This document shows positions 2,834 through 21,260 of a stretch of 21,260 nucleotides of DNA, piece after piece; position 1 is the stretch's first letter; each line of letters begins with the position of its first letter. This DNA comes from an uncultured archaeon (GTDB lineage: Archaea; Iainarchaeota; Iainarchaeia; Iainarchaeales; CSSED10-239): the NCBI GenBank assembly GCA_964463155.1, contig CAYXAY010000007.1, positions 6,237 through 27,496 of the forward strand, written 5' to 3'. The translations under genes and the position numbers were made by a program. A model generated the notes under the pieces. It made no database searches. It was not told where the DNA came from and saw only the letters and a program-made list of their open reading frames with translations.

Positions 2834-4300
2834 ATGAAGAGTTTAGATAAATGGCCAGTAATTGAATCATATTATTATTTGCATAGTCCAGTTCAACAGC
2901 AGATTAATTCCTTTAATCAATTTATTGATGAGAAGGTTCCAGAGATTGTTGAAGAAAACGGATTTATTAGTTCAAGCAACAATGTTGATGTTACATTATC
3001 AAATGTAGAAATAACAAACCCACAGATTGTTGAAGCAGATAGAACCGCAAAGTTTAGATTAATGCCAATGGAAGCCAGACTTAGAAACCTAATCTACTCT
3101 GGTTCAATATATCTTGACATCAAGCTTTACAGAAAAGGAGTACTTCAAGACGAAAAAAGAGCTTATGTTGGAGAAATGCCAATACTTGTAAAGTCAAATA
3201 GATGTAACCTTTATGGTTTGTCTCCTGATGAATTGATAGAGAATGGAGAAGACCCAATGGATAAAGGAGGTTATATGATCATCAATGGTTCAGAGAAAGC
3301 ATTAATCACTCAAGAAGTTCTTGCATTTGACAGGATTCTTTTAAATGACGATGAAGAAGTAACAAATGCACAAGTAATTTCTGTTAAAGGAGCATTCAAA
3401 GGAAAAGTAAGAATATCAAGAACACAAGACGGATTATTCACAGTAACCTTTCCATCCTCACCAAGAAAACTAATGTTTATAGAGTTATTAAACGCAATCG
3501 GTTATATAAAACCAAACCATATCTTAGAGTTGTTCCCAAAAGAACAAATAATTCAAAATGAAGTTCTTTTAAATTTAGACAAAGTAGAACTACAATCAGA
3601 AGAAGACGCTTTAGACAAGATTGGTAGATCAGTTGCACCATCTCAAACAAAAACATACAGACTAAGAAGAGCAAAAGAAGTAATTGATTCTTTCTTGTTA
3701 CCGCACCTAGGTCAAGAAAAAGATGCAAGGACAATGAAGGCGCATTTCTTGGTTGCAATGGCTGTTAAGATTATAGAAAAAGCATATCACTTAAGACCAC
3801 AGGCAGATAAAGACCATTATGCAAACAAAAGATTAGAGCTTTCAGGAAAATTAATGGAAAATCTTTTTAGATTCTCATTTAAACATTTTACAAAAGACTT
3901 AAAGTTCCAGATTGACAGAACAATCTCAAGACACAGAAAACTAAACATTAACACCGTTATTAGACCTGATGCCATAACAGAAAGAATAATGTTTGCAGTA
4001 AGCACTGGAAACTGGATTGGTCAATTGACTGGAGTTAGTAAATACATGTCAAGAGACAACTTCTTAACACCAATAACAGACCTAAGAAGAGTAAAGTCAA
4101 CTTTAGATTCATCAAGAGAACTTTATGAAGCAAGAGATGTTCACGGAACACATTGGGGAAGACTTTGCCCAATTGAAACACCAGATGGACCAAACTGTGG
4201 GCTTGTTAAAAACTTGTCAATGATGGCAAAGATTACAACAGACACAGACCCTGAAGGAATAAAAAAAATATTAAAAAATGAGGGTGTCACTTCTGACTAA
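2834..4300 (+). CDS. rpoB2: DNA-directed RNA polymerase subunit B'' (N-terminal half of split Rpo2)
   Basis: Rpb2-family motifs GGYMIINGSEKALITQE, DKDHYANKRLELSGKLMENLFR and HGTHWGRLCPIETPDGPNCGLVKNLS. It ends where split archaeal B''/B' genes divide. Confidence 0.95.
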   Translation: MKSLDKWPVIESYYYLHSPVQQQINSFNQFIDEKVPEIVEENGFISSSNNVDVTLSNVEITNPQIVEADRTAKFRLMPMEARLRNLIYSGSIYLDIKLYRKGVLQDEKRAYVGEMPILVKSNRCNLYGLSPDELIENGEDPMDKGGYMIINGSEKALITQEVLAFDRILLNDDEEVTNAQVISVKGAFKGKVRISRTQDGLFTVTFPSSPRKLMFIELLNAIGYIKPNHILELFPKEQIIQNEVLLNLDKVELQSEEDALDKIGRSVAPSQTKTYRLRRAKEVIDSFLLPHLGQEKDARTMKAHFLVAMAVKIIEKAYHLRPQADKDHYANKRLELSGKLMENLFRFSFKHFTKDLKFQIDRTISRHRKLNINTVIRPDAITERIMFAVSTGNWIGQLTGVSKYMSRDNFLTPITDLRRVKSTLDSSRELYEARDVHGTHWGRLCPIETPDGPNCGLVKNLSMMAKITTDTDPEGIKKILKNEGVTSD

Positions 4301-6165: not shown

Positions 6166-8757
6166 ATGAACACATCAAAGAAAATAAAAAGCATTGAATT
6201 TGGAGTATTAAGTCCAGAGATGATTAGAAAGATGTCTGCTGTTGAAATCTCAAGAGCAGAAACTTACGACAAGGACGGTTATCCTATTGAAAGAGGACTA
6301 ATGGACCCGCACCTTGGAATTATTTCTCCGGGTTTGAGATGTAAGACATGTGGACAGACAATGAAGAATTGTCCAGGCCATTTTGGTTCATTAGAACTGA
6401 TTAGACCAGTAATTCATCCAAAGTTTGGTGAAAAGCTTTACTATGTTCTTGCGTCAACCTGTCAGGAATGTGGAAGAATGCTTCTTGATGATGAGGAAGT
6501 AAATGAATTGATGTTGATCTCTGAAGACACAGACAAATGCGTTAAAGAAATACTTAACAGAGTAAAAGGCGAAAAAAAATGCCCACATTGTAAAGCAGCA
6601 GTTAACAAAATAGCTCTTGACAAACCAACAAATTTTTTCAAAAACGGAGAAAGACTTTATCCTGCCGAAATTCTTGATTGGTTAGTAAAGATATCAGACA
6701 AAGATCTTTTCTTGTTTGGTTATTCAGACAAACTAAAACCACAATGGTTTATTGTTACTGTTCTTCCAATATCTCCAGTTTCAATAAGACCATCTTTGTC
6801 TTTAGAAAACGTAATAACTTCTGAAGATGATCTAACTTACAAATTGCTTGACATTGTTAGAATAAACACGAGATTACAAGAAAACATTAATGCTGGAGCT
6901 CCACAGATAATCATTGAAGACCTTTGGGATCTTTTACAATATAACATAACCACTTATATTGACAACAACACCGCGGGCGTTCCACCAGCAAAGCAAAGAT
7001 CAGGAAGACCACTTAAAACAATAGCTCAAAGACTAAAAGGAAAGAAAGGAAGATTTAGATATAACCTTATTGGTAAAAGAGTAAACGCCTCCGCTCGTTC
7101 AACAATCACACCATCTGTTGATATCAAATTTAATGAGCTTGGTATTCCAGAGTATGTTGCAAATACTTTAACTGTTCCTGAAAAGATAACTGCTTGGAAC
7201 AAAGAAAAAATAAAAGACTATATACTTAAAGGAAAAGTAAGTTATCTTCTAACAGAAAAGGGACTAAGAAAAATAATAACTCCTGAAAACAGAGAAGAAC
7301 TTGCAGATACAATAACAGAAGGAATGACTGCAAAACGAAAATTGCAAGACGGAGACATCGTAGTATTCAACAGACAGCCAACTCTTCATAGAATATCAAT
7401 GATGGGGCATTATGCAAAAGTCCTTCCTGGAAGAACATTTAGACTAAACCCAATAACCTGTGATCCATACAATGCTGATTTTGACGGTGACGATATGAAT
7501 CTTCATGTTCCTCAAAGCGAAGAATCATATGCTGAAGTTAAAGAGCTTATGGTTGCAGACAAACATGTTATAAGTATTAGAAACGGAAAGCCAGTTATTG
7601 CTCCAGACCATGACCTTCTTTCAGGAGCCTATCTATTAACAAGAGTATCAACTGAATTTTCCAGAAAAGAAGCAATGAATATGTTATATTCTATCGGCAT
7701 AACTGAACTTCCAACAGCAGACAGAGGAAGAGGATATTATTCAGGAAAACTACTGTTTAGCCAAATACTTCCAAAAGGACTATCAATTGCTTACAAGAAC
7801 AAGCTTTGTGGTATTGTTTCAAAAGCAAAAGACTGTAAAAAATGTAAAAAAGAAAAATGTGCTTACGATTGTTATCTTAAGATAGAAAAAGGGAAAATTC
7901 TTTGCGGAGTAATTGATGAAAGAATTGGTTCACACAAAGGCCTTATTGAAACAATCTATAGACACTTTGGAGCAGAGGAATTAACTGAATTCTATTATAA
8001 GTTTTCAAAACTAGTGTTCTTTGCAATAAACAAACAAGGTTTGACTGTTGCTCTTGACGAATACAAGGCAGGCGAAGAACTACAAAAAGAAATAAGAGCA
8101 AAAGTAAAAGGAATGATGGCAAGTTCAAATGCAATCATTAAGAAATTTGAAGACAGAAGCTTACAATTAATACCAGGGAAAAACCTTGAAGAAACATTTG
8201 AAAGCGAGATATTAAATGTTACTGGCGAAATGAAAGAAAAGATATCAGATAAGATTCAAGAATTAAAGCTTGAAGAGCTTATGTCAGAAACAAAGAAATC
8301 AAACAACAACACAATACTAGTTGCAAGTATTGGCGGGGGTCGTGGAAGATTACTAAATGTTGTTAACATGCTGGGACTTTGGGGGCAAGTAACTGTTAGA
8401 ACAGGAAGACCAAAAGCAGGATTTTCAGAAAGACTATTAAGTTTAAGTCCAAAAGGAACAAACCAAGTAATTGATTTTGGATTTGTACAAAGCAATTTCT
8501 TTGATGGAATGAATCCAAGAGAATATTTCATACACGCTATTGGCGGAAGACAAGGTGAAATAGACACCGGTGTTGCAACTAAAGTTTCTGGTTATCTTTA
8601 CAGAAGACTATCAAATGCACTTAAAGACCTTGTTGTTAATGATGAATTAAAAGTTACATCGGCTGATGGTCAAGTAATACAATTTATGTATGGAGAAGAC
8701 GGTCTTTCCCCAGAAAAAGCATATCTTGGAAAGAACATAAACTTTTTCAATGAGTAA
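6166..8757 (+). CDS. rpoA1: DNA-directed RNA polymerase subunit A' (Rpo1N)
   Basis: N-terminal zinc sites CKTCGQTMKNCPGHFG and CQECG...CPHCK, then NRQPTLHRISMMGH and the catalytic YNADFDGDDMNLH. Confidence 0.95.
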   Translation: MNTSKKIKSIEFGVLSPEMIRKMSAVEISRAETYDKDGYPIERGLMDPHLGIISPGLRCKTCGQTMKNCPGHFGSLELIRPVIHPKFGEKLYYVLASTCQECGRMLLDDEEVNELMLISEDTDKCVKEILNRVKGEKKCPHCKAAVNKIALDKPTNFFKNGERLYPAEILDWLVKISDKDLFLFGYSDKLKPQWFIVTVLPISPVSIRPSLSLENVITSEDDLTYKLLDIVRINTRLQENINAGAPQIIIEDLWDLLQYNITTYIDNNTAGVPPAKQRSGRPLKTIAQRLKGKKGRFRYNLIGKRVNASARSTITPSVDIKFNELGIPEYVANTLTVPEKITAWNKEKIKDYILKGKVSYLLTEKGLRKIITPENREELADTITEGMTAKRKLQDGDIVVFNRQPTLHRISMMGHYAKVLPGRTFRLNPITCDPYNADFDGDDMNLHVPQSEESYAEVKELMVADKHVISIRNGKPVIAPDHDLLSGAYLLTRVSTEFSRKEAMNMLYSIGITELPTADRGRGYYSGKLLFSQILPKGLSIAYKNKLCGIVSKAKDCKKCKKEKCAYDCYLKIEKGKILCGVIDERIGSHKGLIETIYRHFGAEELTEFYYKFSKLVFFAINKQGLTVALDEYKAGEELQKEIRAKVKGMMASSNAIIKKFEDRSLQLIPGKNLEETFESEILNVTGEMKEKISDKIQELKLEELMSETKKSNNNTILVASIGGGRGRLLNVVNMLGLWGQVTVRTGRPKAGFSERLLSLSPKGTNQVIDFGFVQSNFFDGMNPREYFIHAIGGRQGEIDTGVATKVSGYLYRRLSNALKDLVVNDELKVTSADGQVIQFMYGEDGLSPEKAYLGKNINFFNE

Positions 8758-8787: not shown

Positions 8788-9960
8788 ATGAAAGCGTTGC
8801 CAATTACAATTGTTGAAAAAATAGAGAAATATGCATATATGAAAAAACTTAGTAATGATAAGAAGAAAAGACTTCTTGATGTTACAACTAAGAAATACAA
8901 TGATGGGCTTGTTGTACCAGGAGACGCGGTAGGACTTATCGCAGCCCAGTCTATCGGAGAACCAGGAACTCAGCTAACTTTAAGAACAAAACACTATGCA
9001 GGTTCTTTAGAAGTTTCGGTAGGCCAAGGAATACAAAGGGTTATAGAGATTGTTGATGCAAGATCACAAGCAAGATATTCATCAATGAAGATTTATCTTG
9101 ATAGAGACAAACTAAAAAGAGAAAAAGACGTTGATGAGTTCTGTAAGAATCTTGTTGATGTAAAGGTTATAGATGTTGGAACATTTGTTGAAGATTTCTC
9201 TGAAAAATTGGTATCCTATAAGTTTGACTCAGAAAAAGCAGAGATACATGGAGTAAGCCAAGAGGAAGTCATGGATAGCATCTATGAAAAAATAGAAGAC
9301 ACTTACGATTCTAAAAGATTTACAAACAACAAGCAACAAATAAATTTCCATTTTGGGAACAAAACTCCTCTGTATAATATTAGAAAAGCAATATTAAAGT
9401 GGAACAAGATTCCCTTGTGTGGTGTCAAAGGAATAGAAAAAGCAGTTATAATTGAGGAAAACAGAGAAAAGGTAATACATACAAAAGGTTCAAACCTTAA
9501 GGAAGTTTTAAAACTTGAAGGAGTAGACACTTATAGAACATTTACAAACGACATCTTTGAGATATACAAGGCATTTGGTGTTGAATCCGCAAGAGAAGCA
9601 ATTGTTAAAGAGCTTAAATACACATTTGATACAAACGGAATTGCAATAAATATTAGACACATTTATATCCTCGCAGACATGATGACTTCCTCAGGAACAA
9701 TACAAGGAGTTGTAAGAACAGGTATTACCGGAAAGAAAAAAAGCCCATTTGCAAGAGCTGCATTTGAAGAGACTATTAAGCATATTATTACTGCAGCATT
9801 TAATGGAGAAGTTGAAGGTCTAGTGGGCGTTACAGAAAACATAATCGTTGGACAGCCAATTTCAGCAGGAACCGGAAAGGTAAGATTAACTCTTGATGCA
9901 AAAGGCCTGGAAAAAATGATTAAGGCCCGGGCATTACAGGATAAGAAGACAGAAGAGTGA
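8788..9960 (+). CDS. rpoA2: DNA-directed RNA polymerase subunit A'' (Rpo1C)
   Basis: Trigger-loop region [28 protein letters not shown]. Size and position immediately after rpoA1 fit. Confidence 0.95.
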
Positions 9961-10034: not shown

Positions 10035-10601
10035 ATGAATTGGACAAGATTCAATCAGGAAGTAAGAAACGCAATAGATACAGGAAACATAATTATAGGA
10101 GCAAATCAGGCAAAAAAGGAATGTCTAATAGGAGAACCTAAACTATTAATTGTAAGTTCAACAGTTGACCCTCAAAACAGGGATTTGTTTAGACATTATG
10201 CAAAATTGCTTGGAATAAACCTAATAGAATATCCAGAAGGCAGTAATGAACTTGGCTCTGTTTGTGGGAAACCGTTTGGAATATCAATTATTGCAATTAT
10301 TAATGAGGGAAAATCTTCCATCTTAGAAGTAATTACTGAAAAAGATTTTGAGAAAAAAGAAGATAAAAAATTAATTGCAAAAAAAGCTAAAAAAGAAGAA
10401 AAGAAAACAGCTAAGACTACAAAGAAAACAAAGAAAGATGCTGATGAAGACTTTTCGGAAGACGAATTAACTTCAAAGAAGAAAAGAGACGCAAAAAAAG
10501 GTCCGAAAGTAAAAGAAGAGAAAAAAGAAGAAGAGGAAAATAATATTCCAATAACTGAAGATAAGATGTTTAAGGACATTATCAAGATAAAGAAAAAATA
10601 A
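10035..10601 (+). CDS. rpl30e: Ribosomal protein L30e with a ~90-aa Lys/Glu-rich C-terminal extension
   Basis: The first ~100 aa fit archaeal L30e (AIDTGNIIIGANQAKK...LGSVCGKPFGISIIAIINEGKSSILEV), and the position after rpoA2 is canonical. The remainder is a K/E/D low-complexity tail. Confidence 0.8.
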   Translation: MNWTRFNQEVRNAIDTGNIIIGANQAKKECLIGEPKLLIVSSTVDPQNRDLFRHYAKLLGINLIEYPEGSNELGSVCGKPFGISIIAIINEGKSSILEVITEKDFEKKEDKKLIAKKAKKEEKKTAKTTKKTKKDADEDFSEDELTSKKKRDAKKGPKVKEEKKEEEENNIPITEDKMFKDIIKIKKK

Positions 10602-11066: not shown

Positions 11067-11666
11067 ATGAAATTATTTGACAAATGGGAAACAAAAGGAA
11101 TAAACTTCAAAGATGTTGGTCTTTCTAAATACCTGAATTTAGAAGACAAGGTCATACCACACACATTTGGTGCAACAAACAAAGAACCTTCCAGAAAAAC
11201 GAAAATCAATATTGTTGAAAGACTGGTAAACAAGATGATGAGATCAGGACAAGGAAAGAAAAAGCTTTCAGGTAAATATGTAAGACACAGAATGGGTTGT
11301 GGAAAGAAAGAACAGATGTTAAAAGTTGTTGAAGAGGCATTTAATCACATACATAAAGTAACAAAGGAAAACCCAGTTCAAGTTCTTGTCACAGCTGTTG
11401 AATACTCAGCACCTAGAGAAGACATTACTAAGCTTCAGAAAGGAGATATCACTTACACGCAATCAGTTGACTTAGCTCCAATCAAGAGACTTGACGAAGC
11501 ACTAAAGAATATTGCTCTTGCGGCCTTTAAAAACACATACAAGAACAAAAAAGAACCAGCAGCAGCATTAGCAGAAGAAATAATAGATGCTTCAAAAAAC
11601 GACCAAAAAAGCTTTTCTGTAAAAAGAAAAGACGAAATAGAAAGAATTGCACAAGGTTCAAGATAA
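11067..11666 (+). CDS. rps7: Ribosomal protein S7 (uS7)
   Basis: Archaeal-length S7 (199 aa) with the C-terminal KRKDEIERIAQGSR-type ending, immediately after S12. Confidence 0.9.
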   Translation: MKLFDKWETKGINFKDVGLSKYLNLEDKVIPHTFGATNKEPSRKTKINIVERLVNKMMRSGQGKKKLSGKYVRHRMGCGKKEQMLKVVEEAFNHIHKVTKENPVQVLVTAVEYSAPREDITKLQKGDITYTQSVDLAPIKRLDEALKNIALAAFKNTYKNKKEPAAALAEEIIDASKNDQKSFSVKRKDEIERIAQGSR

Positions 11667-11692
11667 ATTAAAAAGGAACCTTCTTCATTCTT

Positions 11693-12598
11693 TCAATTTT
11701 TTTTATAAAAATATTCTTTAATCTGTATTTTACAATTATCTAAATGGCCTAATAAAATCTTCTTTAAAATAAATATTATAAAATTGATGTATACCCTGGC
11801 ATTTTTTTTTAATTTGCACAAATCACATAGCGGTAAATATTTCCTATATTCTAGCCCTCTCGATAATCTCTTATTGTGTGATAAATATAATTCCCAAGTA
11901 AAATTACTTGGGTGTGGGTAATTGCATATACAAAGTGGAACATTTTCTAAAAAAACTTTTTTTATATTTAATTTTTTTATTTTAGCCAAGTAATGTTTTG
12001 TTATAGGGAGTGATACAATTTCTTTTTTACAATAATCTTTTTTAAAATTATAGAAACGAGGGTATGAAATTCTAATTTTATTTAAATATGGAAAGGTAGT
12101 ATTTAGCCAAATAATCATTTCACTTAACGTTTTATAATTGTGTTTTGTGATCACCGTGTTTGTACTAACTTTTATGTGCTTCTTAAACTGTTGGAATATA
12201 GATAACGCATTAAGTGCCACATAAAAACTATTTTTATTTTGTGAAATTTTTGAAAAGGTGGTGCGATTATGTGAATGAAAAGATATTTTAAATTCAGTTA
12301 TGCCTGCTGCAATTAATTGAGACACATACTCTTTAGTAAAGTTTGTTCCATTTGTCTCAATCAATATATTTTTATAGTAATGTTTAGCATATTTAACTAT
12401 TTTTAATAAATCTTCGTGTAAGGCGGGTTCCCCACCAGTAATAGTGATACGCGAAAAATTATTATTTAATGTCCTGTCTATATCTTTATATATTTCTTTT
12501 AAGGTGGGTTCGGGATTATAATGTTTGTTTACCGAACAAAAAATACAATTATTCAAACATTTTCCAGTAATGTGTATTTCTACTTCTTTCATCAACAA
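11693..12598 (-). CDS. Radical SAM enzyme (MoaA/PqqE-like core), possible C-terminal auxiliary Cys motifs
   Basis: CxxxCxxC at the N-terminus (GKCLNNCIFC), a GGEP motif (ITITGGEPAL) and ETNGT. C-terminal Cys pairs are PLCIC and PLCDLC. The gene is very AT-rich, convergent on rps7 and divergent from the 12733+ operon. Confidence 0.8.
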   Translation of the reverse strand: MLMKEVEIHITGKCLNNCIFCSVNKHYNPEPTLKEIYKDIDRTLNNNFSRITITGGEPALHEDLLKIVKYAKHYYKNILIETNGTNFTKEYVSQLIAAGITEFKISFHSHNRTTFSKISQNKNSFYVALNALSIFQQFKKHIKVSTNTVITKHNYKTLSEMIIWLNTTFPYLNKIRISYPRFYNFKKDYCKKEIVSLPITKHYLAKIKKLNIKKVFLENVPLCICNYPHPSNFTWELYLSHNKRLSRGLEYRKYLPLCDLCKLKKNARVYINFIIFILKKILLGHLDNCKIQIKEYFYKKN

Positions 12599-12721
12599 TC
12601 ATCAATAATAATATTTGTTAATATTATTGTATTAAATAATATTAAAAAACCGATAGGTTATTAATATTATATTAAATAGATAGCGTGAATTTTTTATTGT
12701 AAAAAATAATCAACTGATGTC

Positions 12722-12729
12722 TTTATAAA
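12722..12729 (+). promoter_or_regulatory. TATA-box-like element (TTTATAAA) for the + strand island operon
   Basis: It lies in the divergent intergenic region. A transcription start about 25 nt downstream would favour the internal ATG at 12769 as the start of the small ORF. AT-rich context makes this weak. Confidence 0.3.
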
Positions 12730-12732
12730 TTA

Positions 12733-12909
12733 ATGGGAGCCAAAGCATTATTATATGGCGGTTTTATTATGGGTGATAATATCAATTTAAATCAAAATAA
12801 ACTTCAAAATCTAGAAAAAGAAAAGCAATTTTCAATACACAGATTACCAATTACTGCTAGAGAAAAGAAAGGCATTTTTGAAGCGTGGGCAGAATCTAGT
12901 GATTTATAG
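12733..12909 (+). CDS. Candidate precursor peptide / small ORF (58 aa; alternative in-frame start 12769 gives 46 aa)
   Basis: Hand-translated and below the ORF-track size cutoff: MGAKALLYGGFIMGDNINLNQNKLQNLEKEKQFSIHRLPITAREKKGIFEAWAESSDL. It ends 7 nt before the PqqD-like gene, in the precursor position of pqqA/mftA-type clusters. It has no Cys and no family match that I can assert. Confidence 0.3.
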   Translation: MGAKALLYGGFIMGDNINLNQNKLQNLEKEKQFSIHRLPITAREKKGIFEAWAESSDL

Positions 12910-12916
12910 ATTGCTT

Positions 12917-13165
12917 ATGAAAAAGATAATAGTTAAAAATAAAGAATTTTGGTATCGACAAGAAGAAGATTTATTTATTTTATTTGAAAAATCTAATTAT
13001 TATTATTTAGTTACTGGGCTAATTATATTTATTTTAGAAGAATTATCTCAAAATAGGGATTTAAATACAATTACTGCAGAAATTAAAAAAAAATATGATA
13101 TTGATGTGTCTATTGAATTTTTATTGCAAAAATTAAGCGAAATTGAAGGTTTAACAATATGTTAA
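12917..13165 (+). CDS. PqqD-like RiPP recognition element (RRE) protein, 82 aa (ATG start preferred over track TTG 12878)
   Basis: Size and pattern resemble PqqD/MftB: a short beta-strand region (WYRQEEDLFILFEKSNYYYLV) followed by helices (IIFILEELSQNRDLNTITAEIKKKYDIDVSIEFLLQKLSEIEGL). Its stop overlaps the start of the downstream rSAM/SPASM gene (ATGTTAA). Confidence 0.5.
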   Translation: MKKIIVKNKEFWYRQEEDLFILFEKSNYYYLVTGLIIFILEELSQNRDLNTITAEIKKKYDIDVSIEFLLQKLSEIEGLTIC

Positions 13166-14148
13166 AATATTTTAAAACTCCGCTGTTTCCGAGTATTGAT
13201 TTAAGTTCAAATTGTAATTTACAGTGTATTCATTGTAGAAACGACAAAACAAAAAACACTAAAATAGATTACAATAAGGTTATTGATTTAGTTGATGAAT
13301 GTGAACGATTAGAGGTTTTTCATCTATCTTTTGCAGGAGGAGAGCCGCTTTTATATCCTCAGATTTATGATTTGCTAGATTATGTCCAAAAATTAAATAT
13401 CCCCAAAATTACAATAGTTACAAATTGCACCATTTTAAATAGAGAGAAGTTAAAATCATTAGATAAATCAAAAATAAGATTTGCAGTAAGTTTAGATGGA
13501 CCAAGAGAAATACATAATAAAATAAGGGGGGCAAATATCTTTGATAATGTAATTAGTAACATCCAATTCTTATTATCTGAAGGATACTATGTTTTTTTAA
13601 GTTGTACTTTAATGAAACAAAATTATAAATATTTTGATGACATAATACAAATTGCTAAGGATATTAAAGTTAATCAAATAAATTTTTCAAAAGTTTTTCC
13701 AGTACATCCAGAGATATTATATTTTATGTTATCAAGGTTGGATTTAGAAGAATTATATAAGAAATACCAGAAATATTCCGATGAAAAAGATATTATAATT
13801 TTTTTAGATAAAGGGTATATGGGATTTCCTGAAGAATATAAAACAGATGTTTCTTTTGCTATGGGTTGTAGGGGCGGTATATCTCAAATAAACGTATTAT
13901 CAGATGGTTCTGTTGTGGGCTGTAAATTATTGTCTAATGTTATTGCAGGGAATATTTATAAAGAGAACTTGGAAAATATTTGGAAGAATGATAAAAATTG
14001 GACATTGTTTCGTAATATAGATGAAAATATAGAAAATAAAAAATGTAATTCTTGTAAATATTTTAGTGCTTGTCGCGGTGGTTGTAGAGCCTATACTTAT
14101 TATATTACTGACAGTTTCTATAAAAAAGATCCATTATGTCCGTTGTGA
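13159..14148 (+). CDS. Radical SAM / SPASM-domain peptide-modifying maturase
   Basis: N-terminal CNLQCIHC (CxxxCxxC) and AGGEPLL. The C-terminal SPASM signature is GCRGG...DGSVVGC followed by CNSCKYFSACRGGC (C-x2-C-x5-C-x3-C) and a terminal DPLCP. Confidence 0.85.
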   Translation: MLKYFKTPLFPSIDLSSNCNLQCIHCRNDKTKNTKIDYNKVIDLVDECERLEVFHLSFAGGEPLLYPQIYDLLDYVQKLNIPKITIVTNCTILNREKLKSLDKSKIRFAVSLDGPREIHNKIRGANIFDNVISNIQFLLSEGYYVFLSCTLMKQNYKYFDDIIQIAKDIKVNQINFSKVFPVHPEILYFMLSRLDLEELYKKYQKYSDEKDIIIFLDKGYMGFPEEYKTDVSFAMGCRGGISQINVLSDGSVVGCKLLSNVIAGNIYKENLENIWKNDKNWTLFRNIDENIENKKCNSCKYFSACRGGCRAYTYYITDSFYKKDPLCPL

Positions 14149-14152
14149 GAGC

Positions 14153-15805
14153 ATGTCTAAATATACTATAAGTGAAATAATAATTTTTTTCTTGAAATTA
14201 CAGAAAATAAAGTGTGTTTTTGGAGTGCCTGGTTCTAACATGGATTTTTTGAATTATATTTCAAAAAATAACAAAATAGAATTTATATCAAATAAAGAGG
14301 AAAAAAATTCAGTATATATGGCAATGGGATATTCTAAAGCATCTAATAATGTAGGTTGTTGTTTTGCTAGTTTAGGACCAGGAGTTTTTAATTTAATTCC
14401 AGGAATCATTTCAGCATATTATGAATCTACGCCTATATTAGTTATTGGGGGACAAAACTCTGCAATAAATTTTGGGCAAAATGTATTTCAAGAGGCCTCC
14501 GGAAAATCTAGAACTGTAAGTCAGATTGATCAGTTAAAAAAAATCACACTATATTCTGTAATAATTGATCCTAACAAAATTTATTTGCAATTATCTTTAA
14601 TCCATAAATATTTGCATTGTTCTAGACCAGGGCCGGTATATTTAGAATTTCCGCAAGATTTAATGAACTTAATTATAGATTTTAATGAAAATAAACTCCG
14701 AAATATTTTAATAAAACAAAATAAAATTACATCTAAACAAAATCACAAAATAAACCTGAAAACAATGAAATTATTGTGTAAAGAAATTTATTGTGCTAAA
14801 CACCCAGTATTTATAATTGGTGGAGGCGCAAAAAATGTTAAAAATTACATTAAGATTTCGGAACATTTTTCAATACCAATTGTAACAACATTTAAAGGAA
14901 AAGACAAAATTCCAAATAATTCAAAAAACTATTTGGGATGTATTGGTTTGATTGGGGCGCAGAGTACAAATAGGTACATATTTAATTCTGATTTGATAAT
15001 TGCAATAGGAACTAGTTTAGGACAATTTTCTACAGATAATTGGAAAATCATTTCTCCTCACAGTAAAATATATCGCATAGATATTTATACAACGGATTTA
15101 ACTAAAAATTATTTGTCCAATTTAATTCAATGTGATTTATTTTATTTTTCAGAGGTGTTTTCTAAAGAAATGCACCTATTTAAAAAGAACAAATTAGAAA
15201 TAAATATACGGAAAAACGAAATATTAAAAGTAAAATCCGAAATAGATAAAGAAATTAATCCTAAAAAAACAAATTCTAATAAAATAAAATTTATTAAACA
15301 ATTAAGGAAAAAACTGCCTAAAAATGCGATCGTTGTTAACGAAGATATTTTTTTAATTGGGAAATATTTCCCTTTTTTTGAAGAGAATACAAATCTCAAT
15401 TTCACTAATCTAGCGCCCATAGGGTGTGCTTTGTCTGGTGCCATAGGTGCAAAAATTGCAAAACCTAACAAAACAGTGGTCGTTGTGTTAGGCGATGGTG
15501 GATTTAATATGTCTATATCTGAATTAAATACTATTTTTAATTATAATATAGATTTGTGCATTTTTATACTTAATAATTGTTGTTATGGAGTAGTATATAA
15601 ATATCAAAAATATAAATTTCGGGAATCATTTTATACAGAATATAAGAACCCCGACTATAAGAAATTAGGAACATTGTACGGTTTCAAAACCCAAATTCTA
15701 AATAATGGAAAACTAAGAAATATTACTCAATTTAATAAAAGTGATAGGTTATTATTTAATATAATTATTGACAAGGATGAAAAGATGAATATAAAAATAT
15801 ATTAA
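14153..15805 (+). CDS. Thiamine-diphosphate-dependent enzyme, acetolactate-synthase-like three-domain architecture (550 aa from ATG 14153; track start 14066 overlaps the upstream gene)
   Basis: The N-terminal PYR domain reads FGVPGSNMDFLNY...KEEKNSVYMAMGYSK...GPGVFNLIPGIISAYYESTPILVIGGQ. The central domain reads PVFIIGGGA...IPIVTTFKGKD. The C-terminal ThDP motif is LGDGGFNMSISELNT...ILNN. It starts 4 nt after the SPASM stop. Confidence 0.8.
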   Translation: MSKYTISEIIIFFLKLQKIKCVFGVPGSNMDFLNYISKNNKIEFISNKEEKNSVYMAMGYSKASNNVGCCFASLGPGVFNLIPGIISAYYESTPILVIGGQNSAINFGQNVFQEASGKSRTVSQIDQLKKITLYSVIIDPNKIYLQLSLIHKYLHCSRPGPVYLEFPQDLMNLIIDFNENKLRNILIKQNKITSKQNHKINLKTMKLLCKEIYCAKHPVFIIGGGAKNVKNYIKISEHFSIPIVTTFKGKDKIPNNSKNYLGCIGLIGAQSTNRYIFNSDLIIAIGTSLGQFSTDNWKIISPHSKIYRIDIYTTDLTKNYLSNLIQCDLFYFSEVFSKEMHLFKKNKLEINIRKNEILKVKSEIDKEINPKKTNSNKIKFIKQLRKKLPKNAIVVNEDIFLIGKYFPFFEENTNLNFTNLAPIGCALSGAIGAKIAKPNKTVVVVLGDGGFNMSISELNTIFNYNIDLCIFILNNCCYGVVYKYQKYKFRESFYTEYKNPDYKKLGTLYGFKTQILNNGKLRNITQFNKSDRLLFNIIIDKDEKMNIKIY

Positions 15806-15816
15806 AAAGATTACTT

Positions 15817-16125
15817 ATGAAATATAAAATAGACTATATAGTTGAAGGCAACTTTTCAGGCCCTATAAAAATAATAGATTCTTCTTATGATTATAAATTA
15901 GTTTGTGAGGGAGATGTCTTATTAATTAAAAAACCAAATCCAGACATCGTTTTAAGTTTTGGAAAAATTACTGGTATAATATCTGAAGTAGGCGGGAAAT
16001 TATCTCATATCGCGATTGTTTCAAGAGAGAATAATATCCCTTGTGTCAGATTAGAAAATGCAACAAATATTTTAAAAAACGGAGTTGTAATTTCAGTTCG
16101 TGATGGTTTTATATATGTTAAATAA
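15817..16125 (+). CDS. Stand-alone PEP-utilizing-enzyme mobile (phosphohistidine swivel) domain protein, 102 aa
   Basis: GDVLLIKKPNPDIV...GIISEVGGKLSHIAIVSRENNIPCV...NGVVISVRDGFIYV matches the GG-x-(T/S)-SH-x-AI-x-(A/S)-R-E-x-x-IP swivel-domain signature with the catalytic His. Confidence 0.8.
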   Translation: MKYKIDYIVEGNFSGPIKIIDSSYDYKLVCEGDVLLIKKPNPDIVLSFGKITGIISEVGGKLSHIAIVSRENNIPCVRLENATNILKNGVVISVRDGFIYVK

Positions 16126-17122
16126 TGAATTATTTATAAAAATAGGCAAAGATCTGAGTAGAATTCAAAAAGGTGGAGGAATTGATACTCAATGGCCATT
16201 TGTATTGCCAGATTTTGAAATCTCATTTGGAGAAGATATAATAAACCATTTAAACTTTGTTTTATGTAAATTTTTAAACACACACACAATAGATGATGCG
16301 GCAAATTTATTGAAATGCCCTTCTAAAGTCTCGCAATATATTTTATTAATTCATAGCGCTAAACACCTAAATAAAAAAGATAGAAAAAAGTTAATTTTAA
16401 CATTAACCAGTATTTTAAAAAAATTAAGAAAAAATTATCTTTGTGAAAACGGGACTAATCAACTTAACAATTTTGATTATAAAAATTATTTAAATCACAC
16501 ACAATTTACAAAAGAAGATACCAAAAAAATTAATCAATTGTCTAGCACCCTTTATGCTTATTTAGAAAAATTATATCCCACGATGATGCGATTAGGATTT
16601 GAATATCATGGACCATATATTTATAACAATAAAAAATATATTTTTAAGGAATATTTTGATTTAAACAACAATTATATACCTAACTGTAAAATAGATTATA
16701 AAAATATTAAAATAGTTTATGAAATAGATAATGACGTGTATGTAGACTTTTTTGGACACATATATGGCGATGGCAAAACAAAAGTTGTAGGTTTATATAT
16801 AGATGGTAATAAAATAAGCGATATTACAGAGGTGTTTAATAAAATAAAAGACATTTATGAATATCAAAAGTCTTTATTTTTAAACTATAATTATAAAGAT
16901 TATGCAAAAAATTTAGTATTTGGCATATTTTTTTCTTTAAAACCCATCTGCGATAAAATCGGGGTAGATTGGAAACCTCGCAAAAATGTTATTGAAAAAA
17001 CTAAAAATTTTAAATTAATTTTTCCTTTAGAAAATGTATTAAATAAAATACATCAAACACCTACAGAAGATTTAGAAAGAAAAATCACAAAAAGCTTTTC
17101 TGAAATATTTGATGATAAATAA
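16115..17122 (+). CDS. Hypothetical protein (~335 aa), N/K/Y/I-rich, no recognisable motif
   Basis: Long open frame whose ATG at 16115 overlaps the upstream stop by 11 nt (the track gives a GTG at 16100). It lacks the PEP-utilizer C-terminal TIM-barrel signature (no G-[ST]-N-D-L). Confidence 0.6.
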   Translation: MLNNELFIKIGKDLSRIQKGGGIDTQWPFVLPDFEISFGEDIINHLNFVLCKFLNTHTIDDAANLLKCPSKVSQYILLIHSAKHLNKKDRKKLILTLTSILKKLRKNYLCENGTNQLNNFDYKNYLNHTQFTKEDTKKINQLSSTLYAYLEKLYPTMMRLGFEYHGPYIYNNKKYIFKEYFDLNNNYIPNCKIDYKNIKIVYEIDNDVYVDFFGHIYGDGKTKVVGLYIDGNKISDITEVFNKIKDIYEYQKSLFLNYNYKDYAKNLVFGIFFSLKPICDKIGVDWKPRKNVIEKTKNFKLIFPLENVLNKIHQTPTEDLERKITKSFSEIFDDK

Positions 17123-17176
17123 CAAAAATATGTATATTATATTCTATTTTTAAAGTTTCTTTTTCTATAATTATAT

Positions 17177-18121
17177 ATGTCTTATATTAGATTCTTTAAA
17201 GACCTTACAAAAGACTCAGTAAGCATGGCTGGCGGAAAAGGCGCATCTCTTGGAGAGATGAACAATTATGGTTTTCCAATACCCTATGGTTTTGTTGTTG
17301 TTTCTTTAGCCTTTGAAGATTTTATTAAAGAAAACAAAATTGGTTCGAAAATAAAAGAAATATTAAAAACAGTAGACACAAACAAATCAGACACCTCAGA
17401 AAAAGCATCAAAAGACATTGAAAATCTAATTTTAAATGGTGCACTAAATAAAGATTTAGAAAAAGAAATACTAGATTCTTTTAAGCAATTAAATACAGAA
17501 TATGTTGCAGTAAGGTCAAGCGCCACAGCAGAAGACTCCTCAAGTGATGCTTGGGCAGGTCAACTTGATTCATTTCTTAACACTAAAGAACAGAATTTAT
17601 TAGAAAATGTAAAAAAATGCTTTGCTTCTCTTTTTACTCAAAGAGCAATTGTTTACAGAATTGAAAAAGGACTACTTGATAAGAAAATATCGGTTGCTGT
17701 TGTTGTTCAAAAAATGGTTAATTCTGAGAAATCCGGAATTGCTTTTTCAGTTAATCCAGTAACTAACGATTACTCACAAATGATAATTGAAGCAGGATAT
17801 GGTCTTGGAGAAGCCATTGTTTCTGGGCAAATTACTCCCGACAGTTATATTGTCTCAAAAACACACGAAATCTTGGACAAACACAAGGGCACTCAAAGTA
17901 AAGCATTATATCGCTCACCAGACGATCAAGGAAATATTTGGAAAGAAATCACAAATGAGAAATCAGAACAAGTTTTATCTGATAATCAAATAATTGAATT
18001 ATCAAAAATAATTGATAATATTGAGAAACACTATACCTTCCCAGTAGATGTAGAGTGGGCTATTGAAAATGGAAATTTTTACATTCTCCAAAGTAGGCAA
18101 ATAACGACATTAAAAAAGTAA
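17177..18121 (+). CDS. PPDK_N-type ATP-grasp (nucleotide-binding) domain protein of the PEP synthase / pyruvate phosphate dikinase / rifampin phosphotransferase superfamily, 314 aa
   Basis: MAGGKGASLGEMNNYGFPIPYGFVV...YVAVRSSATAEDSSSDAWAGQLDSFLN...VAVVVQKMVNSEKSGIAFSVNP...EAGYGLGEAIVSGQITPD...VEWAIENGNFYILQSRQIT. It has no swivel or TIM-barrel domain. It has its own TATA-like TTTTTAAAG about 25 nt upstream, and its base composition resembles the core genes. Confidence 0.85.
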   Translation: MSYIRFFKDLTKDSVSMAGGKGASLGEMNNYGFPIPYGFVVVSLAFEDFIKENKIGSKIKEILKTVDTNKSDTSEKASKDIENLILNGALNKDLEKEILDSFKQLNTEYVAVRSSATAEDSSSDAWAGQLDSFLNTKEQNLLENVKKCFASLFTQRAIVYRIEKGLLDKKISVAVVVQKMVNSEKSGIAFSVNPVTNDYSQMIIEAGYGLGEAIVSGQITPDSYIVSKTHEILDKHKGTQSKALYRSPDDQGNIWKEITNEKSEQVLSDNQIIELSKIIDNIEKHYTFPVDVEWAIENGNFYILQSRQITTLKK

Positions 18122-18263
18122 TATATATAAACCATTCTTTACTATATTATATATTAGATATAGTCTATTTTTTTAAGTATTCAAGTGACTTGAAAAAGAC
18201 CTTTTGAGACTATAGCTATCTTTAGAATATTAATTATAAATCATAACTAAAAATGGAGAAATT

Positions 18264-20462
18264 ATGGGACGAAAAGAACTAGTTGCAGAACTTGCACAAA
18301 AATTAATGAGTAATACTAAAAATATTAGAAATATTGCAATCATTGCACATATTGATCATGGAAAATCAACATTAACTGATAACCTTGTAGCAACTGCAGG
18401 TCTAATCTCTAAAGAACTAGCAGGACAACAAGTATTCATGGATTCTTATATCCTTGAACAAGAAAGAGGAATTACAATCAATGCCTCAAACGTTTCTGTT
18501 CCTTGTGAGATTAATGGAGAGAAGTTTTTGGTAAATATTATTGACACACCAGGACACGTTGACTTTGGTGGAGATGTTATTAGAGCAATGAGAGCTGTTG
18601 ATGGAGCAGTCTTAGTTGTTGATGCTGTTGAAGGAGTTATGCCTCAGACAGAAACCGTTTTAAGACAAGCATTAAAGGAAAGAGTTAAACCAGTTCTTTT
18701 CATTAACAAAGTTGACAGATTAATAACTGAAATGAACGTTGCTCCAGAAGATATGCAAAAAAGATTTATTAAAGTTGTAATGGATATTAATAACTTGATT
18801 GCAAAAAACGCAGCAGAAGAATTTGCACAAAAATGGCAAGTAAATATTAAAGATGGTTCTGTATGTTTCGGTTCAGGATATCACAACTGGGCATTATCGG
18901 TTCCAGCAATGACTAAATACAATATAAAGTTTAGTGATATTGTTGATTACTGTAAAAACGAAAAACAAAAAGAACTTGCACAAAGAATACCAGTAAGTGA
19001 AGTTTTCTTAGAAATGGTTTCACAGCATTTACCAAATCCAATGGAATCACAAAAATACAGAATTCCAATTATCTGGGGTGGAGACTTAGAAACACCAGAA
19101 GGAAAAGCAATGACTGAATGTAATCATTCAGAAAACAACATTGCAATGATGGTCACTGACGTTGTTCTTGACAAACACGCAGGAGACATAGCTTCAGGGA
19201 GAATATATACAGGAACTATAAAGAAAGGGATGGACTTAAATGTTCTTGGCGCAGACAAAACTGCTAAAGTTCAGCAAGTTGGTATTTACTTAGGTCCCGA
19301 AAGAGTTATATTAGATGAAGTTGTAGCCGGTAACATTGTTTGTGTTATTGGTATGAAAGAAGTTTATGCAGGACAAACATTATCAAATAAAGAAATAAAA
19401 CCATTTGAAAGCTTTATGTCAGATGTTGAACCAGTAATGACTGTTTCAATTGAAGCAAAGAACAGCAAAGATCTTCCAAAACTAATCGAAGTTGTTCACA
19501 ACATCACAAAAGAAGACCCAAACATTAGAGCTGAACTAAACCAAGAAACAGGAGAGCACTTGATTTCGGGTATGGGTGAACTTCATTTAGAAATTACTCA
19601 ATATAAGATTGAAAAAGACAATAATATTCCAATAACTGTTAGTCCGCCAATTGTTCTATATTACGAAACAATACAAAAAGCATCACCAACAATTGAAGGA
19701 AAATCACCAAACAAACACAACAAGTTCAAGATTTCTGTTGAGCCTTTATCAGAAGAGATGCTTGCAAAAGTTAGAGCTATTAAGTTTGATGGAAGAATCA
19801 GAATAAACAAAGATGTAGAAATACAAAATAAATTTGTTGATGCTGGTTTTACAAGAGATGAATCAAAAAATATCTGGGCAGTTCATAACAATTGTATATT
19901 GATTAACAGAACAAAAGGTATTCAAAATCTGTTTGAAACAAGAGAACTTGTAATTGACGCATTCATGGATGCAACAAAGGAAGGACCAGTTGCAAAAGAA
20001 AAGGTTTCAGGAATAATTGTAAATCTTGAAGATGCAACTCTTCACGAAGATGCTATACACAGAGGTCCTGCTCAAGTTCTTCCCGCAATCACTAGAGCAA
20101 TATGGGCTTGTGTTCTTTCATCTGATTATACATTGTTCGAACCAAAGCAAAAACTTTCTGTTTCTGTTCCGCAAGACTTTATGGGTTCAGTTAACAGAGT
20201 TCTTGCAGGCAGAAGAACACAGATTGAAAGAATTGATATGGAAGGAGAATCCTGTATTGTTATTGGTAAGATTCCAGTTAAGTCATTAATTGGTTTAAGC
20301 CAAGAGATGAGAGGAGAAACCCAAGGAAGAGCAATTTGGACAGCAGAATACGCTGGTTATGAAAAATTACCAAAATCCATTCTTATGTCAACCATCACAG
20401 AAATAAGAACAAGAAAAGGAATGGAACCGGAGCCAAAGCCTGCAGAATTCTTCATGGACTAG
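18264..20462 (+). CDS. fusA: Translation elongation factor 2 (aEF-2)
   Basis: G-domain motifs AHIDHGKST, DTPGHVDF and NKVDR. The diphthamide-site region is HEDAIHRGPAQV. Length is 732 aa, with a GGAG Shine-Dalgarno upstream. Confidence 0.95.
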   Translation: MGRKELVAELAQKLMSNTKNIRNIAIIAHIDHGKSTLTDNLVATAGLISKELAGQQVFMDSYILEQERGITINASNVSVPCEINGEKFLVNIIDTPGHVDFGGDVIRAMRAVDGAVLVVDAVEGVMPQTETVLRQALKERVKPVLFINKVDRLITEMNVAPEDMQKRFIKVVMDINNLIAKNAAEEFAQKWQVNIKDGSVCFGSGYHNWALSVPAMTKYNIKFSDIVDYCKNEKQKELAQRIPVSEVFLEMVSQHLPNPMESQKYRIPIIWGGDLETPEGKAMTECNHSENNIAMMVTDVVLDKHAGDIASGRIYTGTIKKGMDLNVLGADKTAKVQQVGIYLGPERVILDEVVAGNIVCVIGMKEVYAGQTLSNKEIKPFESFMSDVEPVMTVSIEAKNSKDLPKLIEVVHNITKEDPNIRAELNQETGEHLISGMGELHLEITQYKIEKDNNIPITVSPPIVLYYETIQKASPTIEGKSPNKHNKFKISVEPLSEEMLAKVRAIKFDGRIRINKDVEIQNKFVDAGFTRDESKNIWAVHNNCILINRTKGIQNLFETRELVIDAFMDATKEGPVAKEKVSGIIVNLEDATLHEDAIHRGPAQVLPAITRAIWACVLSSDYTLFEPKQKLSVSVPQDFMGSVNRVLAGRRTQIERIDMEGESCIVIGKIPVKSLIGLSQEMRGETQGRAIWTAEYAGYEKLPKSILMSTITEIRTRKGMEPEPKPAEFFMD

Positions 20463-20903: not shown

Positions 20904-21260
20904 ATGATAAAAAGAATTTTAGTTTTAGCAAGTCAAAGAAAGAAATCACAAGAGGCAATTTCCTTTTTCTCTAAATATCCATGTAAATTCAAGATATCCG
21001 CATTAATGTGTACTGATGAAAAACAACTAGATTTCTTTAAAAAACAGATAAAGGAATTACAGCCAGACATTGTGTTCTTCCCTAACAAGAACAGCGCAGA
21101 ACAGATTACTGATGAGTTTAATATAAAATGTTATTCTGATTATCTACAATATAATCAATTTCTTAAAGACAGCAACAGTGATTTGGTTGTTTCTGATCTA
21201 GTAGGAATTGATTCTGTTAGATTGATTCTTGCAACAATTGGTGAATATAAAGACATTTGC
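20904..21260 (+). CDS. Dxr-like (1-deoxy-D-xylulose-5-phosphate reductoisomerase N-domain-like) protein, 3'-truncated by the window end
   Basis: Hand-translated as MIKRILVLASQRKKSQEAISFFSKYPCKFKISALMCTDEKQLDFFKKQIKELQPDIVFF...DLVVSDLVGIDSVRLILATIGEYKDIC. It is collinear with the E. coli Dxr N-terminus as I recall it (K-LTILGSTGSIG...FRVVAL...FSPRYAV...[30 protein letters not shown]), but GSTGSIG is replaced by ASQRKKS. Confidence 0.4.
   Translation, partial: MIKRILVLASQRKKSQEAISFFSKYPCKFKISALMCTDEKQLDFFKKQIKELQPDIVFFPNKNSAEQITDEFNIKCYSDYLQYNQFLKDSNSDLVVSDLVGIDSVRLILATIGEYKDIC

Follow-up and report, generated by a model that had tools for sequence, protein, structure and literature searches.

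How does a textbook-conserved archaeal junction, that between the genes for ribosomal protein S7 (rps7) and elongation factor 2 (EF-2), come to hold more than six kilobases of other genes? The question is raised by a stretch of 21,260 nucleotides (nt) on contig CAYXAY010000007.1 (assembly GCA_964463155.1), from an uncultured member of the Iainarchaeota (DPANN), which was analysed at its full length and is called the window here. In the classical archaeal str-type cluster, NusA lies between L30e and S12, and EF-1alpha and S10 follow EF-2. The window runs through rpoH, the two halves of rpoB (2834-4300 and 4328-6148), rpoA' (6166-8757), rpoA'' (8788-9960), L30e, S12 and S7 (11067-11666), and 6,597 nt then separate the end of S7 from the start of EF-2 (18264-20462). 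This interval contains seven open reading frames (ORFs) of at least 80 amino acids (aa) and one conserved small ORF, as the initial annotation had described it (eight ORFs in a 6.6-kb gap), and Pfam bore out its gene calls. We conclude that the interval is probably an island for a peptide made by the ribosome and modified after translation (RiPP) at a recurrent insertion site, either gained before the split from the lineage of a second carrier (locus L032) or spread by recombination. The features on which this reading is built are as follows.

11067 to 11666, plus strand: rps7 (S7), the left core flank, a 199-aa ORF 91% identical to S7 of the relatives L003 to L005
11667 to 11715, plus strand: spacer following S7; it contains the oligo-T run 11697-11704, is homologous to the sequence between S7 and EF-2 in relatives without the island, and marks the island's left edge
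11693 to 12598, minus strand: HxsC-like radical S-adenosylmethionine (SAM) gene, a 301-aa ORF with the motif CLNNCIFC (Pfam Radical_SAM, E=5.6e-20)
12599 to 12768, no strand: divergent intergenic region between the radical SAM and precursor genes, G+C 0.149 over 12599-12732; putative promoter region
12769 to 12909, plus strand: putative precursor peptide gene, 46 aa, MGDNINLNQNKLQNLEKEKQFSIHRLPITAREKKGIFEAWAESSDL; alternative ORF start at 12733
12917 to 13165, plus strand: PqqD-like RiPP recognition element (RRE), 82 aa; ORF from 12878; weak match to Pfam PqqD (E=0.006)
13159 to 14148, plus strand: putative radical SAM/SPASM peptide maturase, 329 aa, CNLQCIHC (Pfam Radical_SAM E=4e-21, SPASM E=2.7e-9)
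14153 to 15805, plus strand: thiamine diphosphate (ThDP)-dependent, acetolactate-synthase-like enzyme, 550 aa; ORF 14066-15805; all three TPP_enzyme domains of Pfam
15817 to 16125, plus strand: stand-alone PEP-utilizers swivel (phosphohistidine) domain, 102 aa, motif GGKLSHIAIVSRENNIPCV (PF00391, E=1.4e-14)
16103 to 17122, plus strand: 339-aa protein of an unnamed family (the 340-aa protein below); ORF from 16100; no Pfam or NCBIfam family
17177 to 18121, plus strand: stand-alone PPDK_N ATP-grasp (nucleotide-binding) domain, 314 aa (PF01326, E=1.5e-95); also in the island of L032
18122 to 18263, plus strand: spacer before EF-2, with a T-run at 18168-18174; homology to the island-free spacer over its last ~40 nt (18224-18263, with GGAG), the island's right edge
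18264 to 20462, plus strand: EF-2, the core flank on the right; downstream of it, from 20904, a gene like 1-deoxy-D-xylulose 5-phosphate reductoisomerase (DXR) again follows the synteny of relatives

The status of the interval follows from comparison with relatives. An EF-2 scan with one genome per species gave 20 loci, nearly all from metagenome-assembled genomes (MAGs) labelled Iainarchaeum, 'ainarchaeum' or unclassified archaeon, and including the complete genome of Candidatus Forterrea multitransposorum. By its EF-2 the host falls inside a star-like clade with L002 to L005, of 91-95% mutual identity. In the close relatives L003, L004 and L005, whose EF-2 is 93% identical to that of the window, and in the outgroups L007 and L008, S7 and EF-2 lie only 60-140 nt apart, and tblastn with all window proteins found none of the island genes in L003 to L005. 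S7 and EF-2 adjoin in the Micrarchaeota outgroup locus L019 as well. The synteny comparison proposed in the initial annotation thus finds the junction without the island in L003 to L005, L007 and L008. When the left spacer was aligned with those of L003, L004, L005 and L032, homology to the island-free spacers reached ~11704-11715, and homology between the window and L032 ended at 11704 and resumed at 11728. The segment of ~11705-18223, 6.5 kb, is a flexible, accessory genomic island.

Three further sequencing runs yielded contigs (L032, L033 and L035) that carry this island at this junction, with 79-82% nucleotide and 71-88% protein identity. These contigs, from several other samples, were retrieved by looking up the closest homologue of the RRE. 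L032 (7.5 kb) begins with the last codons of S7 and the same spacer, followed by a short-chain dehydrogenase/reductase (SDR) gene and the HxsC-like gene on the minus strand; it continues through the precursor, RRE, SPASM, ThDP, swivel, 335-aa and PPDK_N genes and the window's spacer before EF-2 into the first codons of EF-2. Over 6.6 kb it matches the window at 79% identity, and the window lacks its 818 nt that bear the SDR gene. The left junction in L033 and L035 is that of L032. Between the window and L002 to L005, nucleotide identity is 82-88% in core genes and 72-80% in the non-core DXR-like gene (20904-21260), which is orthologous to the gene after EF-2 in those relatives. The divergence of the island is therefore about that of ordinary non-core genes; either it has long resided at the site or it has moved between lineages by recombination through the flanks. 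The drop into this locus that was initially proposed is not to be read as a single recent event, given an island shared at this depth with another lineage. Homologous recombination is reported to shape a related Diapherotrite population (PMC5905446), so that exchange mediated by the flanks is plausible.

The junction was also regarded initially as one of the most conserved loci of the archaeal chromosome. In the Iainarchaeota it is not inviolate, since at least six different gene contents occupy it in the phylum. Genes other than those of the island were found there in L009 (1.95 kb with a Bro-N protein), L010 (two unknown genes), L011 (an unknown gene, a stand-alone PPDK_N gene and a methyltransferase), L013 (Forterrea; an unknown gene and a methyltransferase), L015 (an antisense ORF) and L020 (5.8 kb with a 1,276-aa PPDK_N/PEP-utilizers fusion), and in L014 S7 was not found within 10 kb of EF-2. 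The junction between S7 and EF-2 is a recurrent insertion site, a hot spot, in this phylum. Two genes of these other insertions may be recorded. The 1,276-aa protein, from a sister clade (L020:5360-9190; L012:1-457), carries an N-terminal PPDK_N domain and two PEP-utilizers domains and is encoded upstream of EF-2, and a methyltransferase of 209-210 aa is conserved directly upstream of EF-2 in L011, L013 and L020.

The cassette also occurs at other, unrelated loci (L022, L025, L026, L027/28 and L038). In L022 it lies between a nucleoside phosphorylase and a SLAC1-type transporter, in the same MAG as the EF-2 contig L012. L038 was the one further close locus from a metagenome scan for the SPASM enzyme, where the other matches were generic SPASM enzymes of at most 34% identity; a scan of viral contigs for the same enzyme gave no match. 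The close homologues found are all on Iainarchaeota-type, very AT-rich contigs, and any donor was therefore probably within the phylum. Of the horizontally acquired biosynthetic cassette that had been proposed, an accessory island of biosynthetic type stands, while the compositional argument is weak, the insertion is not recent and the donor need not be sought far away. Defence- or mobile-type genes are often neighbours of the cassette, or of its last three genes alone (L025:6555-10040, L029:8292-14876); they include MazG-like, Schlafen-type helicase, DNA methylase, type I restriction-modification, PIN and NUDIX genes, and the cassette or the trio therefore resides in variable regions of these genomes.

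How the island moves is not evident from its own genes. Its Pfam domains include no integrase or recombinase, and no tRNA lies in or next to it, as initially stated; the sole tRNA of the window, Leu-CAA (1335-1418), is 10 kb upstream. A search for flanking repeats over 11300-18500 returned only short AT-rich chance matches. An 8-nt similarity between the edges, AAAATATT and AGAATATT, was considered as a repeat and discarded, being not significant in such composition and irrelevant after the comparison with L032. The marks of an integrase-mediated island (an integrase or recombinase, a tRNA target, direct repeats) are thus absent here. Rfam recovered the tRNA only, and a scan for bacterial-type promoters and terminators gave 52 sites against 50 expected. 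Elsewhere in the window, a direct repeat of ~170 nt (1062-1232 and 1997-2160) brackets tRNA-Leu(CAA) and a fragment of a DDE transposase (1481-1999, minus strand), and an 85%-identical copy lies directly upstream of the radical SAM gene of the cassette in L027 (1-168) and L028 (1-75). The repeat, which contains a GGGTTTCTACAAGCCC hairpin, is not matched by Rfam, and its folding gives z = -1.84; this lineage may have in it an element resembling a miniature inverted-repeat transposable element or the end of an insertion sequence.

Does base composition tell where the island came from? The cassette (11716-17122) has a G+C of 0.254 and the rpo, rps and EF-2 genes 0.343 (chi-square 133, p ~7e-31), so that the AT-rich island first seen in hand counts of single lines is real, and those counts were right. 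In sliding windows the core genes range over 0.32-0.38 and positions 11500-17250 over 0.22-0.28, with 0.30-0.34 in the PPDK_N gene. The richer G+C noted for this last gene (0.320 overall) reflects its strong conservation, as measured by its Pfam match. The island proteins are rich in N, K, I and Y as described, as well as in F, and poor in G, A, R and V relative to the core proteins; F, Y, M, I, N and K together make up 45% of their residues, against 33% in the core. By codon position, core exceeds cassette by 0.152, 0.077 and 0.045 at the first, second and third positions. Thus 83% of the G+C gap lies at the first two, and the gap therefore reflects amino-acid usage. G+C at the third position (GC3) is 0.190 in the cassette, 0.235 in the core genes and 0.252 in the 119-codon fragment of the DXR-like gene.

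The fetched loci of the relatives have a G+C of 0.23-0.31, with non-core stretches typically at 0.20-0.29, and the island genes (0.24-0.28) are inside the per-gene range of the relatives' ordinary genes (0.21-0.34). In four relatives, the core exceeds neighbouring ordinary genes by 0.033-0.049 in G+C and by at most 0.008 in GC3; against these values the gap between core and cassette in the window, 0.091, is a modest excess. In L022 and L025, the GC3 of the cassette equals that of its neighbours (0.096 vs 0.094 and 0.174 vs 0.181), but its overall G+C is lower by 0.024-0.027, and the cassette proteins are therefore intrinsically AT-coded in every host. The GC3 excess that is left in the window fits an exchange with a more AT-rich relative without amounting to proof. 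The tetranucleotide correlation between cassette and core (r=0.07) was judged unreliable for 5 kb of 25% G+C and is confounded by homology between cassette copies. The compositional check called for at the outset thus returns a significant difference which is mostly amino-acid usage, with a small GC3 deficit, and as a sign of foreign origin it is weak evidence. Low G+C beside highly expressed core genes is mostly an effect of amino-acid usage and is alone no sign of horizontal transfer.

What, then, does the island make? The conserved unit of the cassette consists of the HxsC-like gene (variable in position and orientation), the small ORF, a protein of 81-83 aa, the SPASM enzyme, the ThDP enzyme, the swivel domain and a protein of 320-340 aa; the SDR gene is present in the cassettes of L027/28 and L032. 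The small ORF is the putative precursor. It lies directly upstream of the RRE gene in eight further versions of the cassette, and its core in the window reads I-F-E-A-W-A-E-S-S-D-L. Across the nine versions, the invariant residues are an I, LPIT, a K and I-x-E-A-W-x-E-x2-D, while leaders and C-terminal tails vary. A distant variant, L118, whose 340-aa protein is 33% identical to that of the window, keeps all seven families and has a peptide that ends in KIAEFWVESD. The universal core is therefore I-x-E-x-W-x-E-x(1-2)-D.

The 82-aa protein next to it is modelled as an RRE. Its AlphaFold model (mean predicted local distance difference test, pLDDT, of 89) finds RREs as 11 of the 15 best fold matches in the PDB, with SkfB at the top (probability 0.98) and TbiB1, lasso B1, LynD/TruD, ThcOx and CteB among the others. 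The sole NCBIfam family that it matches is WgkC, which is hit by three of five orthologues (best E=2e-5); a profile of the orthologues found no match in the PDB by sequence. For the SPASM enzyme, the closest solved structures are SuiB (E=1e-12), CteB and anSME. Among 5.8 billion proteins it has seven clusters above 50% identity and then nothing until 29%, and homologues of the RRE likewise form seven clusters. The ThDP enzyme is below every NCBIfam cut-off, and its closest solved structures are BbmA/CsmA and the acetohydroxyacid synthases (AHAS). The elements expected of a RiPP cluster are found together: a radical SAM enzyme with CxxxCxxC and SPASM, a PqqD-like RRE and an adjoining precursor with a conserved core. 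In L038, a secreted protein of 712 aa with a zinc-protease-like motif, HEFTH, is encoded just upstream of the precursor gene (L038:860-2998); it is not conserved in other versions, and it is possible that it serves there as the processing protease.

The second radical SAM protein aligns to the HxsC model over nearly its full length (residues 8-265 on positions 29-283 of 292), and in the window its gene is damaged. The ORF departs from four orthologues after CDLCKLKK and lacks their ending CQGxHKYYNxYF. Read in the adjacent frame, the gene's final 21 codons, CQGIHQFYNIYFKEDFIRPFR, agree with all orthologues and end with a stop at 11736-11738, 69 nt from the stop of S7. One base has been lost within 11802-11815 relative to L032, L033 and L035, and this frameshift takes the conserved C-terminal Cys/His motif out of frame. 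Since the Logan contig L031 holds the same frameshifted product (299 aa), the loss is not an artefact of one assembler. The 26 nt first measured between the convergent stops are thus a product of the frameshift, and the oligo-T run thought to be within the 3' end of this gene belongs to the spacer after S7. Together with the missing SDR gene, the frameshift suggests that the window's copy of the cassette is decaying.

The last three genes appear to form one enzyme. The swivel domain retains its histidine, in GGKLSH, and its gene is directly upstream of that of the 340-aa protein in every context examined. For the 340-aa family, which has 128 representative homologues, a confident model (pLDDT 96) had no match among PDB folds at E<=0.001, and Pfam on 56 members gave nothing informative. 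Conserved positions in the family include E151, E163, H165, Y168 and D211, numbered along an alignment whose first row begins at 16115 of the window. In a fusion protein, P0199, PPDK_N, PEP-utilizers and the 340-aa domain follow each other in the order of phosphoenolpyruvate (PEP) synthase, with the 340-aa domain in place of the PEP/pyruvate barrel, and in L029 and L030 the swivel, 340-aa and PPDK_N genes occur as a three-gene module without radical SAM genes. By this fusion, this trio and its membership in the L032 island, PPDK_N functionally belongs to the island; it was initially set apart as a last gene of different composition. The idea that PPDK_N is an older neighbour of EF-2, as in L011 and L020, was ruled out, because it is absent in L003 to L005 and lies inside the L032 island. 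We propose that the 340-aa protein serves the phosphotransferase as its acceptor-binding or its catalytic part.

What we infer is the chemistry of the individual steps and their order, the kind of product and how the island spread; the pathway would work like a radical SAM/RRE RiPP pathway. The leader of the 46-aa precursor, with its LPIT motif, would be bound by the PqqD-like recognition protein and handed to the radical SAM/SPASM enzyme, which would modify the E-x-W-x-E core, most likely by a C-C or C-O cross-link involving Trp. Further steps could be contributed by the HxsC-like radical SAM enzyme, by a carboligase or decarboxylase reaction of the ThDP enzyme, by a redox reaction and by ATP-driven phosphorylation or activation through the three-gene PEP-synthase-like enzyme. 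In the latter, the PPDK_N ATP-grasp domain would charge the swivel histidine, and the swivel would pass the phosphoryl group to a substrate on the 340-aa domain. The product may be a peptide with a cross-link or else a small molecule derived from a peptide, of the kind of pyrroloquinoline quinone (PQQ) or mycofactocin. An excised small molecule is favoured by an invariant core of very few residues, by tails that vary and by enzymes of small-molecule type; the lack of a conserved protease argues against it. The island itself would have been gained at the site before the lineages of the window and L032 split, or homologous recombination in the conserved flanks would have carried it between them.

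Other histories of the locus have to be weighed. The island could be ancestral at the S7/EF-2 junction in this genus-level clade and precisely lost in L003 to L005, its AT-richness being that of weakly constrained proteins, with no transfer at all. That the island differs between the window and L032 (79-82% identity) much as a non-core gene does between the window and L002 to L005 agrees with this, as do the concentration of the G+C gap at the first two codon positions, the absence of mobility genes from the island and a copy that, with its SDR gene lost and one frameshift, seems to be on the path toward loss. However, adjacency of the two core genes is probably ancestral, given the outgroups L007 and L008 and the Micrarchaeota locus, and the account needs three clean losses (one if L003 to L005 are monophyletic), each restoring a homologous spacer. 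Moreover, other Iainarchaeota have the cassette at unrelated loci, its genes rearranged and its similarities a mosaic: the HxsC-like protein of the window is closest to the L025-L027 type and its SPASM, RRE and ThDP proteins are closest to the L022 type. The cassette is also 0.045 below its host core in GC3, where the deficit of the relatives' ordinary non-core genes is ~0. Ancestral presence is therefore unlikely in our view, yet it keeps some weight, and while the host of L032 is unplaced in the phylogeny, a single gain is inseparable from ancestral presence followed by losses. An error of assembly or binning, by which a foreign AT-rich contig was wrongly joined between S7 and EF-2, is a different matter. 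Logan contigs of the same run do break near the junctions: L031 ends 14 nt past the stop of the radical SAM ORF, and L001 begins inside the 340-aa gene. The contig of the relative L002 breaks at EF-2 codon 10. But L001, of the same run as the window, spans the 340-aa gene, PPDK_N and codons 1-108 of EF-2 with 100% identity, L031 independently covers the radical SAM gene, and in three other runs L032, L033 and L035 carry the 3' end of S7 followed by the island, with L032 reaching the start of EF-2. Misassembly is unlikely, to the point that we give it next to no credence.

The function is subject to similar doubts. The substrate of the enzymes may be a free small molecule, such as a cofactor or a sugar derivative, with the small ORF and the 82-aa protein being incidental. 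A ThDP enzyme, an SDR (in L032 and L027) and a PEP-synthase-like kinase are typical small-molecule enzymes, SPASM enzymes also use non-peptide substrates (AhbD, NirJ and BtrN are among the matches), and the cassette is without a protease or exporter. Against this, every version has the small ORF, with its core invariant, directly upstream of the RRE gene, the 82-aa protein is modelled as an RRE fold, and SuiB and CteB, to which the SPASM enzyme is closest among solved structures, are peptide maturases; a non-peptide substrate thus seems quite improbable. A role in defence against viruses, such as that of viperin-like radical SAM systems, might be read from the matches of both radical SAM proteins to the pVip models of PADLOC (E=5e-22 and 3e-17) and from the defence-like neighbours in L025 and L029 (restriction-modification, a Schlafen-type helicase and PIN). 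However, the pVip matches span only the generic radical SAM core (residues 6-164 of the HxsC-like and 15-193 of the SPASM protein), the NCBIfam viperin model gives 63 bits where its cut-off is 180, PADLOC matches none of the other island proteins, and precursor, RRE and SPASM enzyme form an architecture unlike that of viperins, so that defence is very hard to sustain. An island of RiPP type at a recurrent insertion site remains our preferred reading, with several observations to its discredit. Sequence support for the RRE is weak (the Pfam match above, and E=0.03 for hhalign against fused PqqD domains), and so are its Foldseek E-values, the best being 0.076. No protease or exporter conserved within the cassette was found, and the enzymes are all below curated family cut-offs, so that no reaction can be assigned. 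PPDK_N does not adjoin the cassette in L022, L025 and L026, and the trio is thus not always complete in cis. The window's own copy, frameshifted and without the SDR gene, may be non-functional, and neither integrase nor tRNA nor significant flanking repeat explains mobility.

The core genes around the island have peculiarities of their own. The L30e ORF (10035-10601) encodes 188 aa, of which only residues 6-97 form the L7Ae/L30e domain; Pfam matches nothing in the C-terminal 93 aa, and the extension is kept in L003 to L005 (186-194 aa). A separate NusA ORF is absent between L30e and S12 in the window, unlike in the classical cluster. On its far side, EF-2 is followed by the DXP-reductoisomerase-like gene (PF02670) and not by EF-1alpha and S10, and as this arrangement is common to the clade, the str-type order was already broken there clade-wide. 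In L004, an extra ORF of 172 aa with a G+C of 0.235 lies between rpoB' and rpoA' (L004:3743-4261), which is another break in a tight core operon.

The genomes of DPANN archaea are very small, and these archaea are thought to rely on other cells. A modified-peptide or cofactor pathway of seven to nine genes is a substantial investment for such a genome, and it may point to an interaction or redox function relevant to their lifestyle. We tentatively suggest, somewhat short of an even expectation, that the cassette represents an undescribed class of archaeal peptide-derived products, in which a Glu-x-Trp-x-Glu core would become a Trp cross-linked peptide or a Trp/Glu-derived, PQQ-like cofactor by means of two radical SAM enzymes, a ThDP enzyme and a split phosphotransferase with an acceptor domain of new fold, and which would be exchanged through core flanks. 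No published description of the cassette was found in the literature. For natural products, it would add a new precursor family and an unusual tailoring mix of a ThDP carboligase-like enzyme and a PEP-synthase-like kinase. It also holds a confidently modelled 340-aa domain without a PDB relative, which in some organisms is fused to the ATP-grasp and swivel domains of PEP synthase, and it marks a textbook-conserved junction as a recurrent insertion site in one phylum.

How does the cassette compare with known systems? All its enzymes score well below the curated cut-offs of PqqE, MftC, HxsC, WgkB, PpsA, Rph and acetolactate synthase (ALS), and it belongs to none of these systems. The nearest parallels in organization are PQQ (PqqA/D/E) and mycofactocin (MftA/B/C), which likewise combine a short precursor, tiny in its invariant core, with a separate chaperone of the PqqD family, a radical SAM/SPASM enzyme and tailoring of small-molecule type. 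The core of PqqA is E-x3-Y, for which E-x-W-x-E would be the counterpart. However, the score against PqqE is 82.7 bits (cut-off 381) and against MftC 110.6 bits (cut-off 265), and homologues of PqqB/C/F and of MftD/E/F are absent from the island. A mycofactocin precursor is expected to end in Gly-Val-Tyr, and the one here ends in ESSDL. The cassette further differs from both in the Trp, rather than Tyr, of its core, in its ThDP, HxsC-like and PEP-synthase-like tailoring enzymes and in its DPANN host. The radical SAM RiPPs that cross-link Trp, streptide (SuiB) and WGK (WgkB-WgkC), resemble it in that SuiB is the closest structure, WgkC matches the RRE and a Trp is invariant; but identity is low, WgkB scores 99 bits against a cut-off of 650, neither a KxxxW nor a WGK motif is present, and those clusters are not known to have the additional set of enzymes. 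With the His-Xaa-Ser system (HxsB/HxsC), it shares the pairing of a SPASM enzyme with a non-SPASM radical SAM protein of HxsC type, whereas the HxsC score of 80.9 bits is far from the cut-off (267.9) and the precursor has no His-Xaa-Ser repeats.

The phosphotransferase recalls PEP synthase, pyruvate phosphate dikinase (PPDK), rifampicin phosphotransferase and PigC in combining a PPDK_N ATP-grasp domain with a phosphohistidine swivel that has its histidine. It differs from them in being split into three genes and in having a 340-aa domain where they have the PEP/pyruvate-binding TIM barrel or else the rifampicin-binding domain. PEP-utilizers_C was not found in the island; PpsA gives 324 bits (cut-off 598), in the N-terminal part only, and rifamycin phosphotransferase 255 bits (cut-off 999), with only the N-terminal 313 positions matched. 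Biosynthetic acetolactate synthase (TIGR00118) gives 267 bits against a cut-off of 538, although all three ThDP-enzyme domains are there. As a genetic element, finally, the island is like other flexible islands flanked by core genes, in its presence or absence at a fixed site, its cargo that varies by lineage and its lack of an integrase. It differs from them in that recombination is here inferred and in that its site lies inside the archaeal str-type cluster of ribosomal and translation genes.

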